Of a DNA stretch of 64,000 nt, positions 5,987-64,000 are shown piece by piece. The notes beneath the pieces were generated by a model, which had not been told where the DNA came from, made no database searches, and saw only the letters and a program-made list of their open reading frames with translations. The stretch is from contig JAOTVV010000002.1 in assembly GCA_029863245.1 (NCBI GenBank), forward strand, positions 192,242-256,241, read 5' to 3'. How positions within the stretch are numbered: the stretch's first letter is position 1; every line of letters starts with the position of its first letter. The DNA comes from Gemmatimonadota bacterium. Its GTDB lineage: Bacteria > Gemmatimonadota > Gemmatimonadetes > Gemmatimonadales > GWC2-71-9. Made by a program: the position numbers and the translations under genes.

Positions 5987-6913
5987 CTACAACTCGACCA
6001 CGCTCATCGTCTCCCGCACCGCGTCGGCCGACTTGACGAGAGCAGCCTTCTCCTCGGCGCTGAGCTCGATCTCGACGATTCGCTCCACACCGCCCGCCCC
6101 GAGCAGGCATGGCACACCCACGAACACGTCTTTCATGCCGAACTCCCCTTCCAGCCATGCCGCACACGGCAGCAGCCGCTTCTTGTCTTTCACGATGGCC
6201 TCGACCATCTGCACGGCGCCTGACGACGGGGCGTAGTAGGCGGAGCCGGTCTTGAGTAGGCTCACGATCTCGCCCCCACCCTTGCGAGTGCGCTCCACGA
6301 TCGGATCGAGCGCGCTCTGCTTGATGAACTGCGTGATGGGGATGCCGGACACCGTCGTGTACGAGATGAGCGGCACCATCGAGTCGCCGTGTCCACCGAG
6401 CACCATGGCCTGAATGTCGTCGACCGACACGCCGATCGCTTGCGCCAGGAACGTGCGGAACCGTGCCGTGTCGAGGATCCCGGCCATGCCCATGACACGC
6501 TCGCGCGGGAACCCGGTCACCTTCTTCGCCACGTAGCACATCACGTCGAGCGGGTTCGACACGACGATGATCATTGCCTTGGGCGCCACTTTCTTGATCT
6601 CGGCGGCAACTGATTGCACGATCCCTGCATTCGTCTTCACGAGGTCGTCGCGGCTCATGCCGGGTTTGCGCGGAATGCCCGCGGTCACGACGAAGAGGTC
6701 GCTGCCCTTGGCCGGACCGTAGTCGTTGGCACCAATGATCCGGGTGTCGAACCCCTCCACCGGACCCGACTGCCACTGGTCGAGCGCCTTTCCCTGCGGA
6801 GTCCCTTCCAGGATGTCGACGAGGACGATCTCACGCGCCAGTTCCTTCTCTGCCAGGCGCTGCGCCGTCGTTGCGCCGACGTGACCCGCTCCCACTACCG
6901 TGATCTTGTTCAT
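5987..6913 (-). CDS. mdh: malate dehydrogenase (LDH-like, NAD-dependent)
   Basis: 308 aa: [17 protein letters not shown]...[15 protein letters not shown]...GGHGD. Confidence 0.95.
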
Positions 6914-7440
6914 GGTTCGTTCCCGTGTTGTGCACTGAGGTTGGCTGACGAATGGGGAGGGTCGGGACGCGCGCGGTCGATCGGAACGGCCATTTGTCGG
7001 ATCGCTTCGTACAGCACGATCCCGGCGGCCGTCGCCAGATTGAGGCTGCGGACGGCCGGACCCATCGGAATGCGGAAGATCTCGTCGGGGTGTTTGTCCA
7101 GAATCCGCCGCGGCATCCCGTCCGTCTCACTGCCGAACACCAGGACGCTGTTCGGCGAAAAGGGAGCGTTCAAATACGATCGCGTCCCGTGCGAAGAGAA
7201 ATATAGGCACCGCTCACGCGAGACGACATGACGGAACCCGCGCCAATGGGGGTGGACCCAGAGATCAACCTCATCCCAGTAGTCCAGGCCGGCGCGCCTG
7301 AGCTGCGCATCGTCGAGGCCGAAGCCCAGGGGCTCGATGAGGTGCAGCGCCGTATCGGTTGCGGCGCACATCCGGGCGATGTTGCCCGTGTTGGGGGGGA
7401 TCCGCGGTTCGATCAACGCGATCGACAGTCCCATCACCAC
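6910..7440 (-). CDS. trmL: tRNA (cytidine/uridine-2'-O-)-methyltransferase, SpoU/TrmL family
   Basis: 176 aa: [14 protein letters not shown]...LVFGSETDG...[16 protein letters not shown]. Its stop overlaps the mdh start by 4 nt. Confidence 0.85.
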
Positions 7441-39985: not shown

Positions 39986-40001
39986 TCGAACGAACGTTCG
40001 A
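39986..40001. promoter_or_regulatory. palindromic operator candidate (TetR autoregulation)
   Basis: TCGAACG-AA-CGTTCGA (contains the perfect 10-mer CGAACGTTCG), between the -10 element and the ATG at 40006. Confidence 0.45.
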
Positions 40002-60349: not shown

Positions 60350-61666
60350 TCAATGCACACCCTCGCCCGTGCCGGGTCTCGGGCCGCGAAGTGCCTGACC
60401 GCTCCCGCAGCGATCGCACCCGGTACAGCCGCGCACCGTCTCGCCGAGGTATCTGAGGAGCACGCGACGACGGCACCCGCGGGTGGTGAGGTACCGGCGC
60501 ATGGCGGCAAGGCCGAGCCGCCTCGCCTCGCCCAGGCGCCTCGCGGCCGGCTCGCCGACGTCGAGGCCCGCCAGCTTCGATGCAAGGGTGAGGTCACCGT
60601 TCGTCCACAGCACCTCGCATCGGGACGGTAACCCGTCTCGGCCGGCGCGGCCCGCTTCCTGGAAATACGACTCTGGCCGAGGCGGCACGCCGAGGTGGAG
60701 CACCAGTCGCACGTCCGGCTTGTCGATCCCCATGCCGAACGCGCTCGTCGCCACCATGACCCGGCAGCGCCCATCCAGGAACCGCGCGAGCAGCTCGCGT
60801 CGAGCGCGGCCTGGGAGGCCGGCGTGATAGGGAAGCGCCGAAAGCCCCCATTGTCGCAGCACGGTGGCCACGCCGTCGGTCCGGTCGTGCGTGGGGACGT
60901 ACACGATGGCCGTCCCGTTCACGTGGACGAGCAGCGACGCCGCCTCCCGCACCCGGTCCCGCTCGCGCCGGAACCGGCGTGCTGCCAGGAACAGATTCGG
61001 GCGATCGTGGGAACGGACCACGCGCACCGGCGTGCGGAGTCCGAGCACCCGTAGGATGTCTTGCCGGGTCGCGGGCGTCGCCGTTCCGGTCACGGCGATG
61101 GTGCGCGGTTCCCCGAGGAGGCGACGATACCGACCGATGGCCCGGTAGTGCGGCCTGAAGTCGTGGCCCCACTCGCTGATGCAGTGCGCCTCGTCCACCG
61201 CCAGGAGCGCGATCCGGAGCTGCGCCACGTCCGCGGACAGGGACGGCAGGCGCTCCGGCGCCACGTACAGGAGCCGCACTCTTCCCTCGATGACGGCGTC
61301 CCTCACGGCGTGCCGGCGTCGCGGCGTTTGCGTGCTGCTCAGGTAGGCAGCGGGTACGTCTCGCTGCCGCAACGCGCGCACTTGATCCTGCATGAGGGAG
61401 ATCAGCGGCGACACTACCAGGGTGAGCCCCGGCAAGAGCAGGCCAGGCACCTGATAACAGATCGACTTCCCGCCCCCGGTAGGAAGCACCGCCAGGCAAT
61501 CTCGGCCCTGGAGCGCGGCGAGCACCGCCTTCCGCTGGTAGTAGCGAAAATCGGCGTAGCCCCAATAGCGGCGGAGCACCTCGTGGGCGTCGGCGAGGGT
61601 CGGGATGCTCATCGCCGCCGCGGGACGCACAGGGAGCGCGGAATGCAGCGGAGGAGGAGCGGACAC
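60350..61666 (-). CDS. recQ: RecQ-family ATP-dependent DNA helicase (short form: helicase core + Zn-binding subdomain, no RQC-WH/HRDC)
   Basis: 438 aa: F..YQ......L.GRD.L.V.PTGGGKS.CYQ.P, DEAHCISEWGHDFRP.Y, ATATP, and C-terminal CRR..LL.YLGE....C.GCD.C. An alternative ATG lies at 61612. Confidence 0.88.
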   Translation of the reverse strand: MSAPPPLHSALPVRPAAAMSIPTLADAHEVLRRYWGYADFRYYQRKAVLAALQGRDCLAVLPTGGGKSICYQVPGLLLPGLTLVVSPLISLMQDQVRALRQRDVPAAYLSSTQTPRRRHAVRDAVIEGRVRLLYVAPERLPSLSADVAQLRIALLAVDEAHCISEWGHDFRPHYRAIGRYRRLLGEPRTIAVTGTATPATRQDILRVLGLRTPVRVVRSHDRPNLFLAARRFRRERDRVREAASLLVHVNGTAIVYVPTHDRTDGVATVLRQWGLSALPYHAGLPGRARRELLARFLDGRCRVMVATSAFGMGIDKPDVRLVLHLGVPPRPESYFQEAGRAGRDGLPSRCEVLWTNGDLTLASKLAGLDVGEPAARRLGEARRLGLAAMRRYLTTRGCRRRVLLRYLGETVRGCTGCDRCGSGQALRGPRPGTGEGVH

Positions 61667-61880
61667 GCAAGATCAGCATGATCGGAGGTTGTGGAGGAGA
61701 ATGGGGCGCCACCCCGGCGGAACGAGACTCTAAATCACTACGTGATTGGGCGAAAATGCGCCTCAGCCGTCGTCCGAGACTCCGCGCGCGCGTGTGACGG
61801 TGTAAGGAAACACGTCCTGCGCGTCGTCGCCGAGATTCGGGAAGAACAGATACCGTTCCAGCCGGCCCTTGGAGCGTGCC

Positions 61881-62216
61881 GCACGCCGCCAGGAGCGACG
61901 CGAACCTGACATGAAGCGCGCCACTCGACGCCTCGAGCGAGCCATTCGAAGCTTGAATCGCGCCATTCCGAGCTTCGAGTGAGGCGCTCGAACCCTGGCG
62001 CCCGTCGTCTGGAAGCTCGGATGAACCGTTCCAAGCTTCGATCGGTCCGTTCGAAGTCCCGGACCGCGCTTCGGAAGTTTCGCGTGAGCCGGACCACGCT
62101 TCGAGCGACGCGGTCGACGCTTGAAATGAGGCAGGCGAAGCTTGGAGCGGGTCGTTCGAAGCGTGAAATGCGGCATTCCAAGCTTCGAGTGAGGCGCTCG
62201 AAACGGGCCCTCGGGG
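61881..62216. repeat. degenerate 21-nt tandem repeat array (~14-16 units) with palindromic AAGCTT-centred cores
   Basis: Minus-strand unit consensus is GSC TCR CTC GAA GCT TSG AAY. AAGCTT occurs at 61949, 62033, 62138 and 62180 (spacings 84, 105 and 42, all multiples of 21). The 28-mer at 61965-61992 recurs at 62175-62202 with 1 mismatch, 210 nt away. Confidence 0.75.
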
Positions 62217-62368
62217 GCCGAACCTCAGCGCCGGCTGGGACTTACGGCCGCGGCTACTCATGAATGGCCGCCGCGAGGAGGAAGCGCGCCCACACGCGCC
62301 CGCAAGAGTCGCTGCACCGCCGTAATCCGAGTCTTCTGTCAGGTTTGACACTGAGCGCAAAGGAGAAG

Positions 62369-62397
62369 CCCCGAACGCCGCGTGACGCTCGGGGCTG
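62369..62397. repeat. 29-bp direct repeat, copy 1 (hairpin)
   Basis: CCCCGAACGCCGCGTGACGCTCGGGGCTG, identical to 62840-62868. Forms the stem AGCCCCGA/TCGGGGCT. On the minus strand it is followed by CTTCTCCTTTG. Confidence 0.85.
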
Positions 62398-62406
62398 CTG
62401 AAGGTC

Positions 62407-62736
62407 GTGTTGAAGGATTGGCTGCTACCCAGCGCACCCAAAGTCAGCCATCACCGCTTGTGCAAGATCGATGAGTTGTGGTGGTGGTGCGAGGAGTGGG
62501 TTCGACCGTTTCAGGAGTACACGCGCATTGCGTTGTTCAACGTGACGGGATTACAGCCGCACAAATCGGAGCAGTGGCGCGTCCTACGCTGTCAGGATTG
62601 CGGGCACCTGGAGTGGTTCGTGGTGGGATTGTTGGAGAATAAGCGGCCCCGTCACACCGAGGCGGGGCCGCTGCGTCGGGGGCTCTCCTTATGGATGCTA
62701 TTATGGAGCCTCGTCCTGACGCACTGGCCAAGGTAG
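62407..62736 (+). CDS. hypothetical Trp/Cys-rich small protein with hydrophobic tail (low-GC cassette)
   Basis: 109 aa, GTG/TTG start. GC3 about 80% although the local GC is about 56%. CKIDELWWWCEEW...LRCQDCGHLEWF, with C-terminal LSLWMLLWSLVLTHW. An internal 9-bp-stem hairpin lies at 62641-62672. Confidence 0.4.
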   Translation: MLKDWLLPSAPKVSHHRLCKIDELWWWCEEWVRPFQEYTRIALFNVTGLQPHKSEQWRVLRCQDCGHLEWFVVGLLENKRPRHTEAGPLRRGLSLWMLLWSLVLTHWPR

Positions 62737-62839
62737 GACATACCGTCAGCCGGTGCAAGCGGGACCAGAACGCTCTGTCTATCGCGGCGGTGCTCGCTAC
62801 CCCGTGAACAACAACAACCCGGCGCGGGGCACGAGAAAA

Positions 62840-62868
62840 CCCCGAACGCCGCGTGACGCTCGGGGCTG
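62840..62868. repeat. 29-bp direct repeat, copy 2 = intrinsic terminator of the alpha/beta-hydrolase gene
   Basis: Same 29-mer as 62369-62397. On the minus strand the hairpin is followed by TTTTCTCGTG, 55 nt after the stop at 62923. Confidence 0.8.
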
Positions 62869-62922
62869 GCCAGGGCAGCCGGTTTGTCCGGCTAGACGCT
62901 TGGGCCGATCAGGGAGATCACC

Positions 62923-64000
62923 TCAGTATTGCCACCTCCAAGGGATACCGACCCGCTCCACGGGTGGCCGGCCGGTCGGGTCCTTCTCTGCCGTGGCGGT
63001 TAGAGTCTTCTGCGCCTTGGATGTGGCCTTGCCCGGTTGGTGCATGTGATAAGTGAACACGTCAGGCCATTCTTCGTCGATCGAGTGCGGATTCCGCTTT
63101 TCGGTTACAAAGACCTCGATGTCCGGTTCACGTGTAATTGCCTGTCCCGGGGTAAGGATGTTCTGTTGGTGCGTCAGCATTGCGAGCATGTACTTGGTGA
63201 CGAGGCGATGTATCTCATACGAAGGGATGAGATCGGGTCCGCATATGAGGTCCAGGTAGAAGGCCACCAAGTCGTCATCGATGATCCCATGATCGCGCAA
63301 CACCTGAACGCTCTCGCAGATGTTGGCGAAAGACAGATGGATGGACCTGTTCACGTCTACACGGTAGCTGGGATGTCCTAGAAACGCCGCATGTTGCCGA
63401 GCTTGCCAGCTCCCTGCCGTGCTCCATTCCTGCCCCATGCCCATCGCCGGAACCTTCACTCGGGCCAGCTCCTGGAAGTGAAGCAGTTGGTTCGAGCCGT
63501 CCAGCGGAATGATCATCTTGATGCGGGCGTCCGGGAAGCTCGGTGCACAGGTCCAGGATGGGATCGGCTCGAAAATTGGGTCAATGAGATCACACACCAA
63601 GTCGTCGCCAGCCGCCAGGACCATCGACGCGTACCCCCCGAGAGACCACCCGGAAGCGACGATCATGCTCTGGTCAATGACTCCGCTGAGTAGGTCCAGC
63701 GCGACCACTGCGTCCAGTGCTGCGGATACGTCCCTCGGACGGTTGAAGCTGGCGACCGCCAGATGATCGAATGGCTCGTTGGGGTTGGCAGTCGTGCCAT
63801 CGCCAAAGTGAGTCACCACAGCAACGACGAACCCGTGCTGGGCAAGGCTCGTGCCCACATACGTGTGGTCGTAAGCCGCTGCTCCCCATCCGGGCGAGAA
63901 CATCACCAGGGGGAACGCACCGTTCGAGGCCGGCGTAGGCTCTTGGTAGGCCCCGTAGAGGCCGTACAGCTCAAAGTCGCCGGATGTTGCGACCGGGAGA
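62923..64000 (-). CDS. alpha/beta hydrolase (PAF-acetylhydrolase / lipase-like), N-terminus beyond the right edge
   Basis: Track ORF 62923..63906, but the frame stays open to 64000 (...GDFELYGLYGAYQEPTPASNGAFPLVMFSPGWG...). Nucleophile elbow GWSLGG. Gene GC is about 52-55%. Confidence 0.75.
   Translation of the reverse strand, partial: LPVATSGDFELYGLYGAYQEPTPASNGAFPLVMFSPGWGAAAYDHTYVGTSLAQHGFVVAVVTHFGDGTTANPNEPFDHLAVASFNRPRDVSAALDAVVALDLLSGVIDQSMIVASGWSLGGYASMVLAAGDDLVCDLIDPIFEPIPSWTCAPSFPDARIKMIIPLDGSNQLLHFQELARVKVPAMGMGQEWSTAGSWQARQHAAFLGHPSYRVDVNRSIHLSFANICESVQVLRDHGIIDDDLVAFYLDLICGPDLIPSYEIHRLVTKYMLAMLTHQQNILTPGQAITREPDIEVFVTEKRNPHSIDEEWPDVFTYHMHQPGKATSKAQKTLTATAEKDPTGRPPVERVGIPWRWQY

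Follow-up and report, generated by a model that had tools for sequence, protein, structure and literature searches.

A stretch of 64,000 nucleotides (nt) from a Gemmatimonadota bacterium (assembly GCA_029863245.1, contig JAOTVV010000002.1, positions 192,242 to 256,241; referred to here as the window) carries an array of 21-nt tandem units on its minus strand at 61860..62195, upstream of a recQ gene. The array is non-coding, belongs to a family of elements linked elsewhere to an fn3-domain gene, and is decaying in the window. Comparison with related loci suggests that it forms the central module of a modular non-coding element of ~450 nt, that intact copies of this element serve as the upstream leader or control region of a conserved Gemmatimonadales gene encoding a 203-amino-acid (aa) protein with a coiled coil and an fn3 domain, and that the copy in the window is an orphaned relic. 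In intact copies the units would act through self-complementarity by forming a row of stem-loops. This explanation as a whole, the leader role included, is given a probability of about 0.5.

The array and its element family

Sixteen in-register 21-nt units run from 62195 to 61860 with a 42-nt super-period. Self-similarity by autocorrelation reaches 0.52 for a lag of 21 and 0.57 for a lag of 42, compared with a window-wide lag-21 mean of 0.307 +/- 0.030, and the array is the top 21-nt signal across the 64 kb. Tandem Repeats Finder (TRF) reports periods of 21 and 42 for the array, and the 42-nt super-period is the stronger of the two. An initial annotation, made from the DNA letters alone, had described about 16 units in constant register, a reading confirmed by both autocorrelation and TRF. 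It had also placed exact AAGCTT cores at 61949, 62033, 62138 and 62180, with spacings of 84, 105 and 42 nt, and had noted that a 28-mer at 61965-61992 is seen again 210 nt away (62175-62202) with one mismatch; these positions and spacings are exact. Nine of the ten window cores carrying at most one mismatch share a common phase. The interval assigned to the array stands, but the conserved element is larger, extending from ~62301/62260 to 61868 and weakly to ~61825. A further remark concerned TTCGAA, which resembles the palindrome TCGAACGAACGTTCGA present at window 39986-40001, a candidate TetR operator. The suspicion that this might be coincidence is borne out, because TTCGAA is not a family feature: it occurs three times in the window copy and 0-1 times in each relative.

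A protein search with the frame that reads ASLEAWN matched metagenome open reading frames (ORFs) at 54-66% identity and led to the DNA of related copies. The family comprises 15 further metagenomic loci in ~10 distinct sequence versions, 70-90% identical and set in unrelated gene neighborhoods. Eight true loci were added by a metagenome pattern scan, among them L091, which is the window's own locus; another match from metagenomes, L097, was rejected as a chance pattern match. BLAST against the other copies places the start of the shared block at 62258-62301 and its end at 61868-61870. Identity to the window over this block is 84% for L082, 81% for L088, 85% for L096 and 73-77% for L083-L085, and the array is 87% identical to that of L096. 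The genomes that hold family loci are seen as fragments, and copy counts apply to those fragments: the 64-kb window has one copy and L083 two, sample Ga0255055 contributes two distinct loci, and a profile of the family 5' module finds none in 80 other loci. Family matches are absent from viral contigs, 72,556 plasmids and 50,697 phages. With Rfam models at a permissive threshold, the best scores are 14.8-17.4 bits (E 4.9-8.9), all far under the gathering scores.

Three modules can be recognized. The 5' module is ~75-110 nt long and contains two invariant boxes, CCGTAAGTC and CCCGTTTCGAG, separated by exactly 31 variable nt; a small hairpin around the first box displays compensatory changes. 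In the window this module lies on the minus strand at 62196..62301, contains CCATTCATGAGTAGCC and has its boxes at 62247->62239 (CCGTAAGTC) and 62207->62197 (CCCGTTTCGAG). A profile of 15 such modules matches window 62268-62173 with E = 2.9e-24. The central module is the array, in which each unit consists of a 7-nt spacer (TGCCTCA/CGCCNCR) and a 14-nt palindrome, CTCGAAGCTTCGAG. The family consensus unit, CGCCTCA-CTCCAAGCTTCGAG, is near-perfect in its palindromic part, and a 7-nt spacer followed by a 14-nt near-palindrome therefore places dyad centers every 10.5 nt. Two alternative registers of stem-loops with 10-15 base pairs (bp) are possible. Array length differs between copies by 21, 42 or 147 nt, and core phase is held over ~340 bp in most copies, with shifts of 1-2 bp tolerated. 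The 3' module, ~100-130 nt, comprises a GC hairpin (GGGGGCGGCCGCCCCC), the motif CTTCTCCCGGTACAC(G/T)CGAGCG and a second hairpin (CCGCGGCG...CGCCGCGG). Element boundaries differ between copies, and neither terminal inverted repeats nor target duplications were found beyond short GCCGCGGC-type palindromes at both ends. A CRISPR array was rejected on the basis of the 21-nt period, the semi-conserved 7-nt spacers and the lack of unique spacers.

The same architecture extends to other array types. L083 carries a paralogous element at 7040-7380, 590 nt downstream of its first and on the same strand, with 13.8 copies of the unit TTCAGGGAGCCTGCCTCACGC and a homologous 5' module (type II). A type III array in L086 (683-1000; unit GCCTCATTCCAGGCCTCGACT, AGGCCT core) has the family 5' module and lies upstream of a PadR gene. 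Type I 5' modules, those of the kind found in the window, align without gaps to the 5' modules of two other array types. The 21-nt period and a (C)TGCC(T/G)CA motif persist across types, whereas the 6-nt core changes between AAGCTT, AGGCCT and TCCGGA. An exact period of 21 nt is found in five diverged types: type I, L083 type II, L086 type III, a further array upstream in L086, and L103.

Additional periodic arrays accompany some family members. In L086, arrays at 234-417 (21 nt) and 533-593 (20 nt) are stacked ahead of the 683-1000 array, all of them upstream of the PadR-family gene. In L095, arrays at 218-375 (40 nt x 4) and 383-431 (10/20 nt) lie between a gene for an extracytoplasmic function (ECF) sigma factor and the element. 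A separate heptad "homologue", P0013, was rejected as an unrelated 21-nt satellite. It belongs to L099 (529-1179), where ~31 copies of CTCTAATGGGTCGATAGAGGC with a AGAGGCCTCT palindrome occupy a low-GC contig of 1.2 kb; this contig was reached through a translation mimicking a GSIEASN heptad, and its called ORF requires a non-standard code.

Several lines of evidence establish that the array does not encode a protein. GC content by codon position is flat (0.63/0.64/0.64), compared with third-position values (GC3) of 0.84-0.85 in recQ and the NfeD gene; the initial annotation had likewise put the GC3 of the array below that of neighboring genes. Column variability among homologues is 0.118, 0.096 and 0.109 at codon positions 1, 2 and 3, with no third-position excess, and amino-acid identity is equal across the six frames over 556 codon differences (0.64-0.70 for the window versus L082). 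Frames are broken by an indel of 40 nt in L083 and by a 1-nt shift in L094/L090, visible as phase jumps of the cores, and changes of frame within the array occur in three gene-caller ORFs (P0007, P0012 and P0016). The L082 copy has no start codon, the C-termini of called ORFs are unrelated, no stop is conserved, and the frame of the array relative to the downstream gene varies among loci. None of the four ORF translations has a Pfam match. An independent assembly of the locus (L001), 99.86% identical and without any difference in the array, has no gene called from 61613 to 62922, the interval separating recQ from the hydrolase gene that begins at 62923.

On the side of a gene, the array is open in every minus-strand frame and in one frame of the plus strand, and the heptad translations given initially can be reproduced. 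Other metagenomes carry called ORFs in the candidate frame (the 54-66% matches above), six of eight copies have an ATG or GTG, and differences between the type I and type III unit consensus are synonymous or conservative in that frame. The synonymous fraction is marginally higher there as well (0.284 versus 0.19-0.24 elsewhere), and in L096 the frame reads into the fn3 gene without a stop. The "homologous proteins", however, are gene-caller ORFs only, because frame, start and stop are unconserved. A conserved homologous heptad protein, which the initial annotation would have accepted as evidence for a coding repeat, was looked for, and the ORFs share no frame, start or stop. Taken together, flat GC, the absence of a codon-phase signal, frame-breaking indels and unconserved starts and stops support its non-coding reading.

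The fn3 gene and the probably orphaned window copy

Within 40-110 nt downstream of the 3' module, L084, L095, L096/L098 and L094 all have a ribosome-binding site and then the ATG of a gene whose 203-aa product begins M(Q/E)YP(S/T)REA(E/D)IL.... Homology extends from the 5' end of the element to the fn3 stop codon despite different flanks (for example, -13 to +1037 in L084 versus L096), and the element and the gene after it always share one orientation. The association reaches further. An fn3 homologue with 62% identity (L100-L109, a single locus recovered from many samples) is preceded by a gene-free gap of 880 nt that holds 12 doubly palindromic 21-nt units, GCATTCCGGAGCCGAAATGCC, 200 nt upstream of the gene, and this array is followed by a GC hairpin and a motif resembling TCTCCC..GG.AC.GCGAGCG. 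These arrangements suggest that intact elements act as the leader or control region of the fn3 gene. Two gene calls, P0034 and P0048, are N-terminally extended and translate the same upstream element. In L084 (1648-1662), fn3 codon 5 is TGA, compared with TCA in L095 and L096, indicating a possible pseudogene or a sequencing error.

The 203-aa protein has a C-terminal fn3 domain (Pfam E = 6e-12) and 382 homologues, nearly all of 201-204 aa; one is labeled as coming from Gemmatimonadales, and most lie on short contigs. An AlphaFold model (mean predicted local distance difference test, pLDDT, of 86) predicts a helix, then a 53-residue helix, then the fn3 domain. A clue to nucleic acid binding was sought in this structure, and neither the model nor Foldseek gave one: the model contains no helix-turn-helix (HTH), ribbon-helix-helix (RHH) or nuclease fold, and the Foldseek matches are all fn3 domains. 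PADLOC and NCBIfam have no match to the protein.

The window contains no fn3 homologue, and its 3' module is reduced to a degenerate remnant (CTGGAACGGTATCTGTTCTTCCCGAATCTCGG) on the minus strand at 61825..61859, without the GC hairpin GGGGGCGGCCGCCCCC or the sequence downstream of it. Past 61868-61870 similarity is faint and rearranged, at 51-64% identity to relatives. The window copy retains four exact AAGCTT cores, compared with 10 in L082, L088 and L096. It has 20 private substitutions in the array (2-10 in relatives) and 17 in the 3' module (0-4), and its 5' module, with three, resembles those of relatives. These comparisons show the window copy to be decaying. We conclude that it is likely an orphaned relic, and it probably has little or no function beyond that of a structured, hairpin-prone stretch upstream of recQ.

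Other copies also lack the gene. Gene-less copies break at ~+380 in the window, ~+383 in L085, +436 in L088 and +462-468 in L082/L083; the L087 element breaks after fn3 codon 4, and a further 3' breakpoint lies at ~+510. L084 and L085 have 1.2 kb upstream in common and differ downstream, which, with the varied 3' breaks, is consistent with the gene having been repeatedly lost or replaced through rearrangement. Flanking genes differ at almost every locus. The window copy lies between a hydrolase gene and recQ; the neighbors are PEMT and tRNA-Leu at L082, and a histidine kinase and a GDSL lipase at L083. L084 and L085 each have an integrase fragment, and L096 has HipA together with a nucleotidyltransferase. 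An XRE regulator is found at L090, an ECF sigma factor at both L092 and L095, and a HEPN gene at L087. In L082 the stop codon of the PEMT gene, which is upstream, falls within the 5' edge of the element, and the tRNA-Leu gene of the same locus (6543-6625) lies on the opposite strand, ~100 nt past the 3' end. The "integrase" of L084 (290-889) is merely a C-terminal fragment of the catalytic domain.

The recQ gene of the window (60350..61612, minus strand; a RecQ-family helicase of 420 aa) is co-oriented with the array and has its ATG ~250 nt downstream of it. It is a neighbor only. No other family copy lies beside recQ, so the position of the array upstream of this gene appears incidental. A genome scan anchored on recQ was overwhelmed by generic RecQ matches; identity was 52% at best, and synteny was absent. 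Apparent 21-nt periodicities upstream of other recQ genes proved to be unrelated short repeats, N runs or acidic coding repeats. Unrelated 21-nt repeats of 4-5 copies abut recQ in L010 (5422-5505), a Pyrinomonadaceae metagenome-assembled genome (MAG), and in L019 (5805-5909), a Bacteroidetes MAG, probably by coincidence.

On the other side, ~65 nt upstream of the element boundary at 62301, a terminator-like GC hairpin on the minus strand (62367..62396) belongs to the flank rather than to the element and is predicted to mark the end of the upstream transcription unit. Taken as a 32-nt sequence, AAGCCCCGAACGCCGCGTGACGCTCGGGGCTG, this hairpin (62366-62397) has a second copy in the same orientation at a distance of 471 nt (62837-62868). 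The copies are identical over 26 nt (62840-62865 in the second), and one of them scores as a minus-strand terminator. They bracket a 109-aa plus-strand ORF (62407-62736) that has no match in Pfam, PHROGs, NCBIfam or PADLOC, and the pair looks like a terminator duplicated around an inserted segment.

At the downstream end of the array, public MAGs annotate a 49-aa "hypothetical protein", OEO20_12765 (61763..61912, minus strand; Gemmatimonadota bacterium), which overlaps the last three repeat units and continues into a unique tail. The 96-nt non-repeat tail has a coding-like GC pattern (0.69/0.44/0.78) and is too short to judge. No homologue was found outside the species, the exact match being the only one. 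The frame-2 tail (ERYLFFPNLGDDAQ...) was considered as the remnant of a conserved gene and rejected, its sole match being this same 49-aa ORF. We regard OEO20_12765 neither as belonging to the element nor as an established gene.

Self-complementarity, selection and competing explanations

For the pair L096 and L094, the fn3 proteins share 72% identity, and identity at 4-fold sites is 0.50 (0.42 is expected from composition alone); over the same pair the 5' module is 0.72, the 3' module 0.69 and the array 0.74 identical, the array value being inflated by repeat alignment, as any two units are ~70% alike, and the end modules being unaffected. The selection argument therefore rests mainly on the non-repeat modules. 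Between L096 and L084, identity across the element is 0.71-0.86 and that at 4-fold sites 0.74, and the two rates are about alike. The element thus appears to stay recognizable where synonymous sites are near saturation, and we infer weak-to-moderate purifying selection on the whole of it.

Self-complementarity is clearly maintained. Predicted pairs that changed on both sides number 12, compared with 7.4 +/- 1.5 after shuffling; only 2 of 500 shuffles reach 12, and slid controls fall far lower. Folding z-scores range from -3 to -9. A long-range helix closing the array was considered and rejected as a family feature, since it is strong in L094 alone.

It is proposed that the stem-loops of intact copies are most likely located in a transcribed leader, where, together with the GC hairpin ahead of the ribosome-binding site, they would set the expression level of the downstream gene via attenuation, stability or protein binding. 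Constant co-orientation with the gene and the position of the GC hairpin just before the ribosome-binding site favor a transcribed leader. This conserved hairpin, between array and fn3 gene, has no U tract, and a terminator scan of it is blank. The transcribed hairpin-array leader is the favored single mechanism, held tentatively and at clearly less than even odds; the odds come nearer to even if a variant resembling type III toxin-antitoxin systems, described below, is counted with it.

Several observations, besides the inflation of array identity, weigh against this explanation. The compensatory changes are mostly subfamily-specific and hence represent few independent events. Both strands fold equally well, and the RNAalifold consensus is -101.9 kcal/mol for the antisense strand versus -90.4 kcal/mol. 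G.U and A.C mismatches are about equally frequent (63 versus 53), and a C.C mismatch (CTCC...CGAG) is conserved in many units; this pattern fits symmetry at the DNA level as well as it fits RNA. Across minimum free energy z-scores, mismatch counts and RNAalifold on both strands, no strand asymmetry favors an RNA made from one strand. Scans of three loci found no sigma-70 promoter or intrinsic terminator in the element. An RNA model does not demand an exact 21-nt period across diverged types. Finally, the well-preserved copies L082 and L088 also lack the fn3 gene, suggesting that the element may live independently of it.

A phased DNA-binding array is a close rival, though at somewhat lower odds than the leader. 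A dimeric or filament-forming protein encoded elsewhere would bind the 21-bp units, whose dyads recur every 10.5 bp, and would assemble on one helix face upstream of fn3 to give an operator array, a scaffold of the iteron or centromere kind, or a nucleation site for a nucleoid protein. The initial annotation had argued from the two helical turns spanned by each unit, and this argument gains some weight from the retention of exactly 21 nt in five diverged types. Core phase held over ~340 bp in most copies agrees with it, even with the shifts of 1-2 bp, as do the 10-, 20- and 40-nt periods of neighboring arrays. The full strand symmetry in folding and in mismatch types likewise speaks for it, as does the direct repetition of the asymmetric GCCTCA in three types. 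Against it, long-range compensatory changes are unexpected for protein sites, and the palindromic cores specific to each type would require co-evolving proteins. Moreover, 12-16 sites far exceed known operators, no DNA-binding gene is consistently linked, and the protein that is linked is modeled as a long helix and an fn3 domain, with neither an HTH nor an RHH fold. Plasmid and phage matches are lacking, and no rep or par genes lie nearby.

A selfish or neutral interspersed repeat, similar to BOX elements, miniature inverted-repeat transposable elements or minisatellites, is less probable again. Under this explanation the element would have no host function and its link to fn3 would be hitch-hiking. 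Unrelated gene contexts, with integrase fragments, toxin-antitoxin genes and a tRNA nearby, are what such a repeat would predict, as are the modular build with variable unit number, the 3' breakpoints varying from ~+380 to ~+510 and the two elements in tandem in L083. The supply of the PEMT stop codon in L082 and the creation of spurious ORFs are also BOX-like (PMC3049150). Against it, the element is rare in public data: 22 ORF matches, about half of them true members, were found among 1.84 billion cluster representatives, with 8 true metagenome DNA matches, and the 64-kb window has a single copy where 80 other loci have none. Terminal inverted repeats and target duplications were not found at the ends of the element. 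Furthermore, the element and the fn3 gene have diverged together to the point where the proteins share 62-72% identity.

The resemblance to type III toxin-antitoxin systems rests on order. Array, GC hairpin, ribosome-binding site and gene follow one another on one strand, and the array is upstream of and co-oriented with the fn3 gene in L084, L095, L096/98, L094 and L103; fn3 is absent in the window. The array RNA would be processed to 21- or 42-nt units that bind or neutralize the fn3 protein, and the GC hairpin would limit read-through. The 42-nt super-period is within the 34-45-nt range of toxI, cptI and tenpI units, genes for HipA, HEPN/nucleotidyltransferase and HicB are abundant nearby, and the orphan array decays where the gene is lost. 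In spite of these features such a system is improbable. The fn3 protein is unlike ToxN, AbiQ, CptN or TenpN, matching fn3 only in Pfam and nothing in PADLOC, and its model suggests no nuclease-like fold. The units are palindromic rather than pseudoknot-forming, a U-tract terminator is absent, and the arrays of L082 and L088 are well preserved without the gene.

A heptad-repeat protein gene (MSSRGRKS...ASLEAWN x 16, maybe frameshifted to end at 61763) is the least credible alternative, one that the evidence from frames, starts, stops and indels described above has already largely refuted.

Relation to known repeat systems and significance

The closest structural parallels come from BOX elements of Streptococcus, in which boxA, a variable number of boxB units and boxC are predicted to fold into stem-loops, give rise to spurious ORFs on both strands and can affect neighboring genes (PMC3049150). 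Like BOX, the element has conserved 5' and 3' modules flanking variable tandem units, is predicted to fold into stem-loops and sometimes supplies the stop codon of an upstream gene. BOX elements have 45-nt boxB units, terminal inverted repeats and >100 copies per genome, whereas the element described here has 21-nt doubly palindromic units, an apparently low copy number, no terminal inverted repeats that could be found and a long-standing tie to one downstream gene.

Other systems share individual features. Type III toxin-antitoxin loci (toxI-toxN, cptIN and tenpIN) place short repeats, a hairpin and a small protein gene on one strand and occur in mobile or defense neighborhoods. The element has the same array-hairpin-gene order but differs in having 12-16 palindromic units instead of 2-6, no match to a toxin family and no U-rich terminator. 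Iteron and centromere arrays, such as plasmid iterons, R1 parC, the 20-bp repeats of pSK41 parC and the 12 x 43 bp of F sopC, consist of phased repeats of ~20 or ~42 bp. Phased repeats, inverted-repeat cores at multiples of the helical turn and an adjoining gene are common to both; the element, in contrast, is chromosomal and has no nearby Rep, ParA, ParB or ParR gene, and no AT-rich unwinding region was noted. MIRU-VNTR loci are minisatellites scattered through intergenic DNA; strains differ in the number of units, and the period, a multiple of three, keeps ORFs open. The element is likewise intergenic and variable in number with a period divisible by three, but MIRU units are 46-101 bp long, non-palindromic and located between the genes of operons. 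REP units are ~35 nt long, number hundreds per genome and are paired with a RAYT transposase, and none of these properties is seen for the element in the genome fragments covered. What it shares with REP/BIME-2 and REPINs is an intergenic tandem arrangement of alternating inverted GC-rich palindromic arms with two linker classes (review PMC3184786).

The element thus misses at least one defining feature of each of the families compared, whether a toxin family, rep/par genes, terminal repeats or an Rfam model. It is best regarded as an undescribed element of the modular, non-coding tandem-repeat kind, unusual in its fixed link to a single protein family.

Recognition of the element as non-coding would have a practical consequence. 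Gene callers turn it into "hypothetical proteins", for example P0001-P0012 and OEO20_12765, and these false genes would be removed from Gemmatimonadota annotations. The family also offers a comparative example of a long non-coding array that keeps an exact period of two helical turns despite turnover of its sequence.

A bolder possibility, and an unlikely one, is that the array and the coiled-coil/fn3 protein form a previously unrecognized two-part module of Gemmatimonadota. If so, either a repeat RNA would be bound or processed by the protein, as in a type-III-like toxin-antitoxin system or a ribonucleoprotein, or the DNA would serve as the scaffold for a filament. Such a module would move between genomic islands as a unit, and the window would preserve a relic of it.

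The window array itself, as a decaying remnant, is of modest interest and is probably uninformative on recQ; it is the family that is worth following. Gemmatimonadota is a phylum with almost no molecular genetics, and the tie between this element and one uncharacterized protein family of 382 homologues gives a concrete starting point for testing ideas about gene control or about a new RNA/DNA-protein module.

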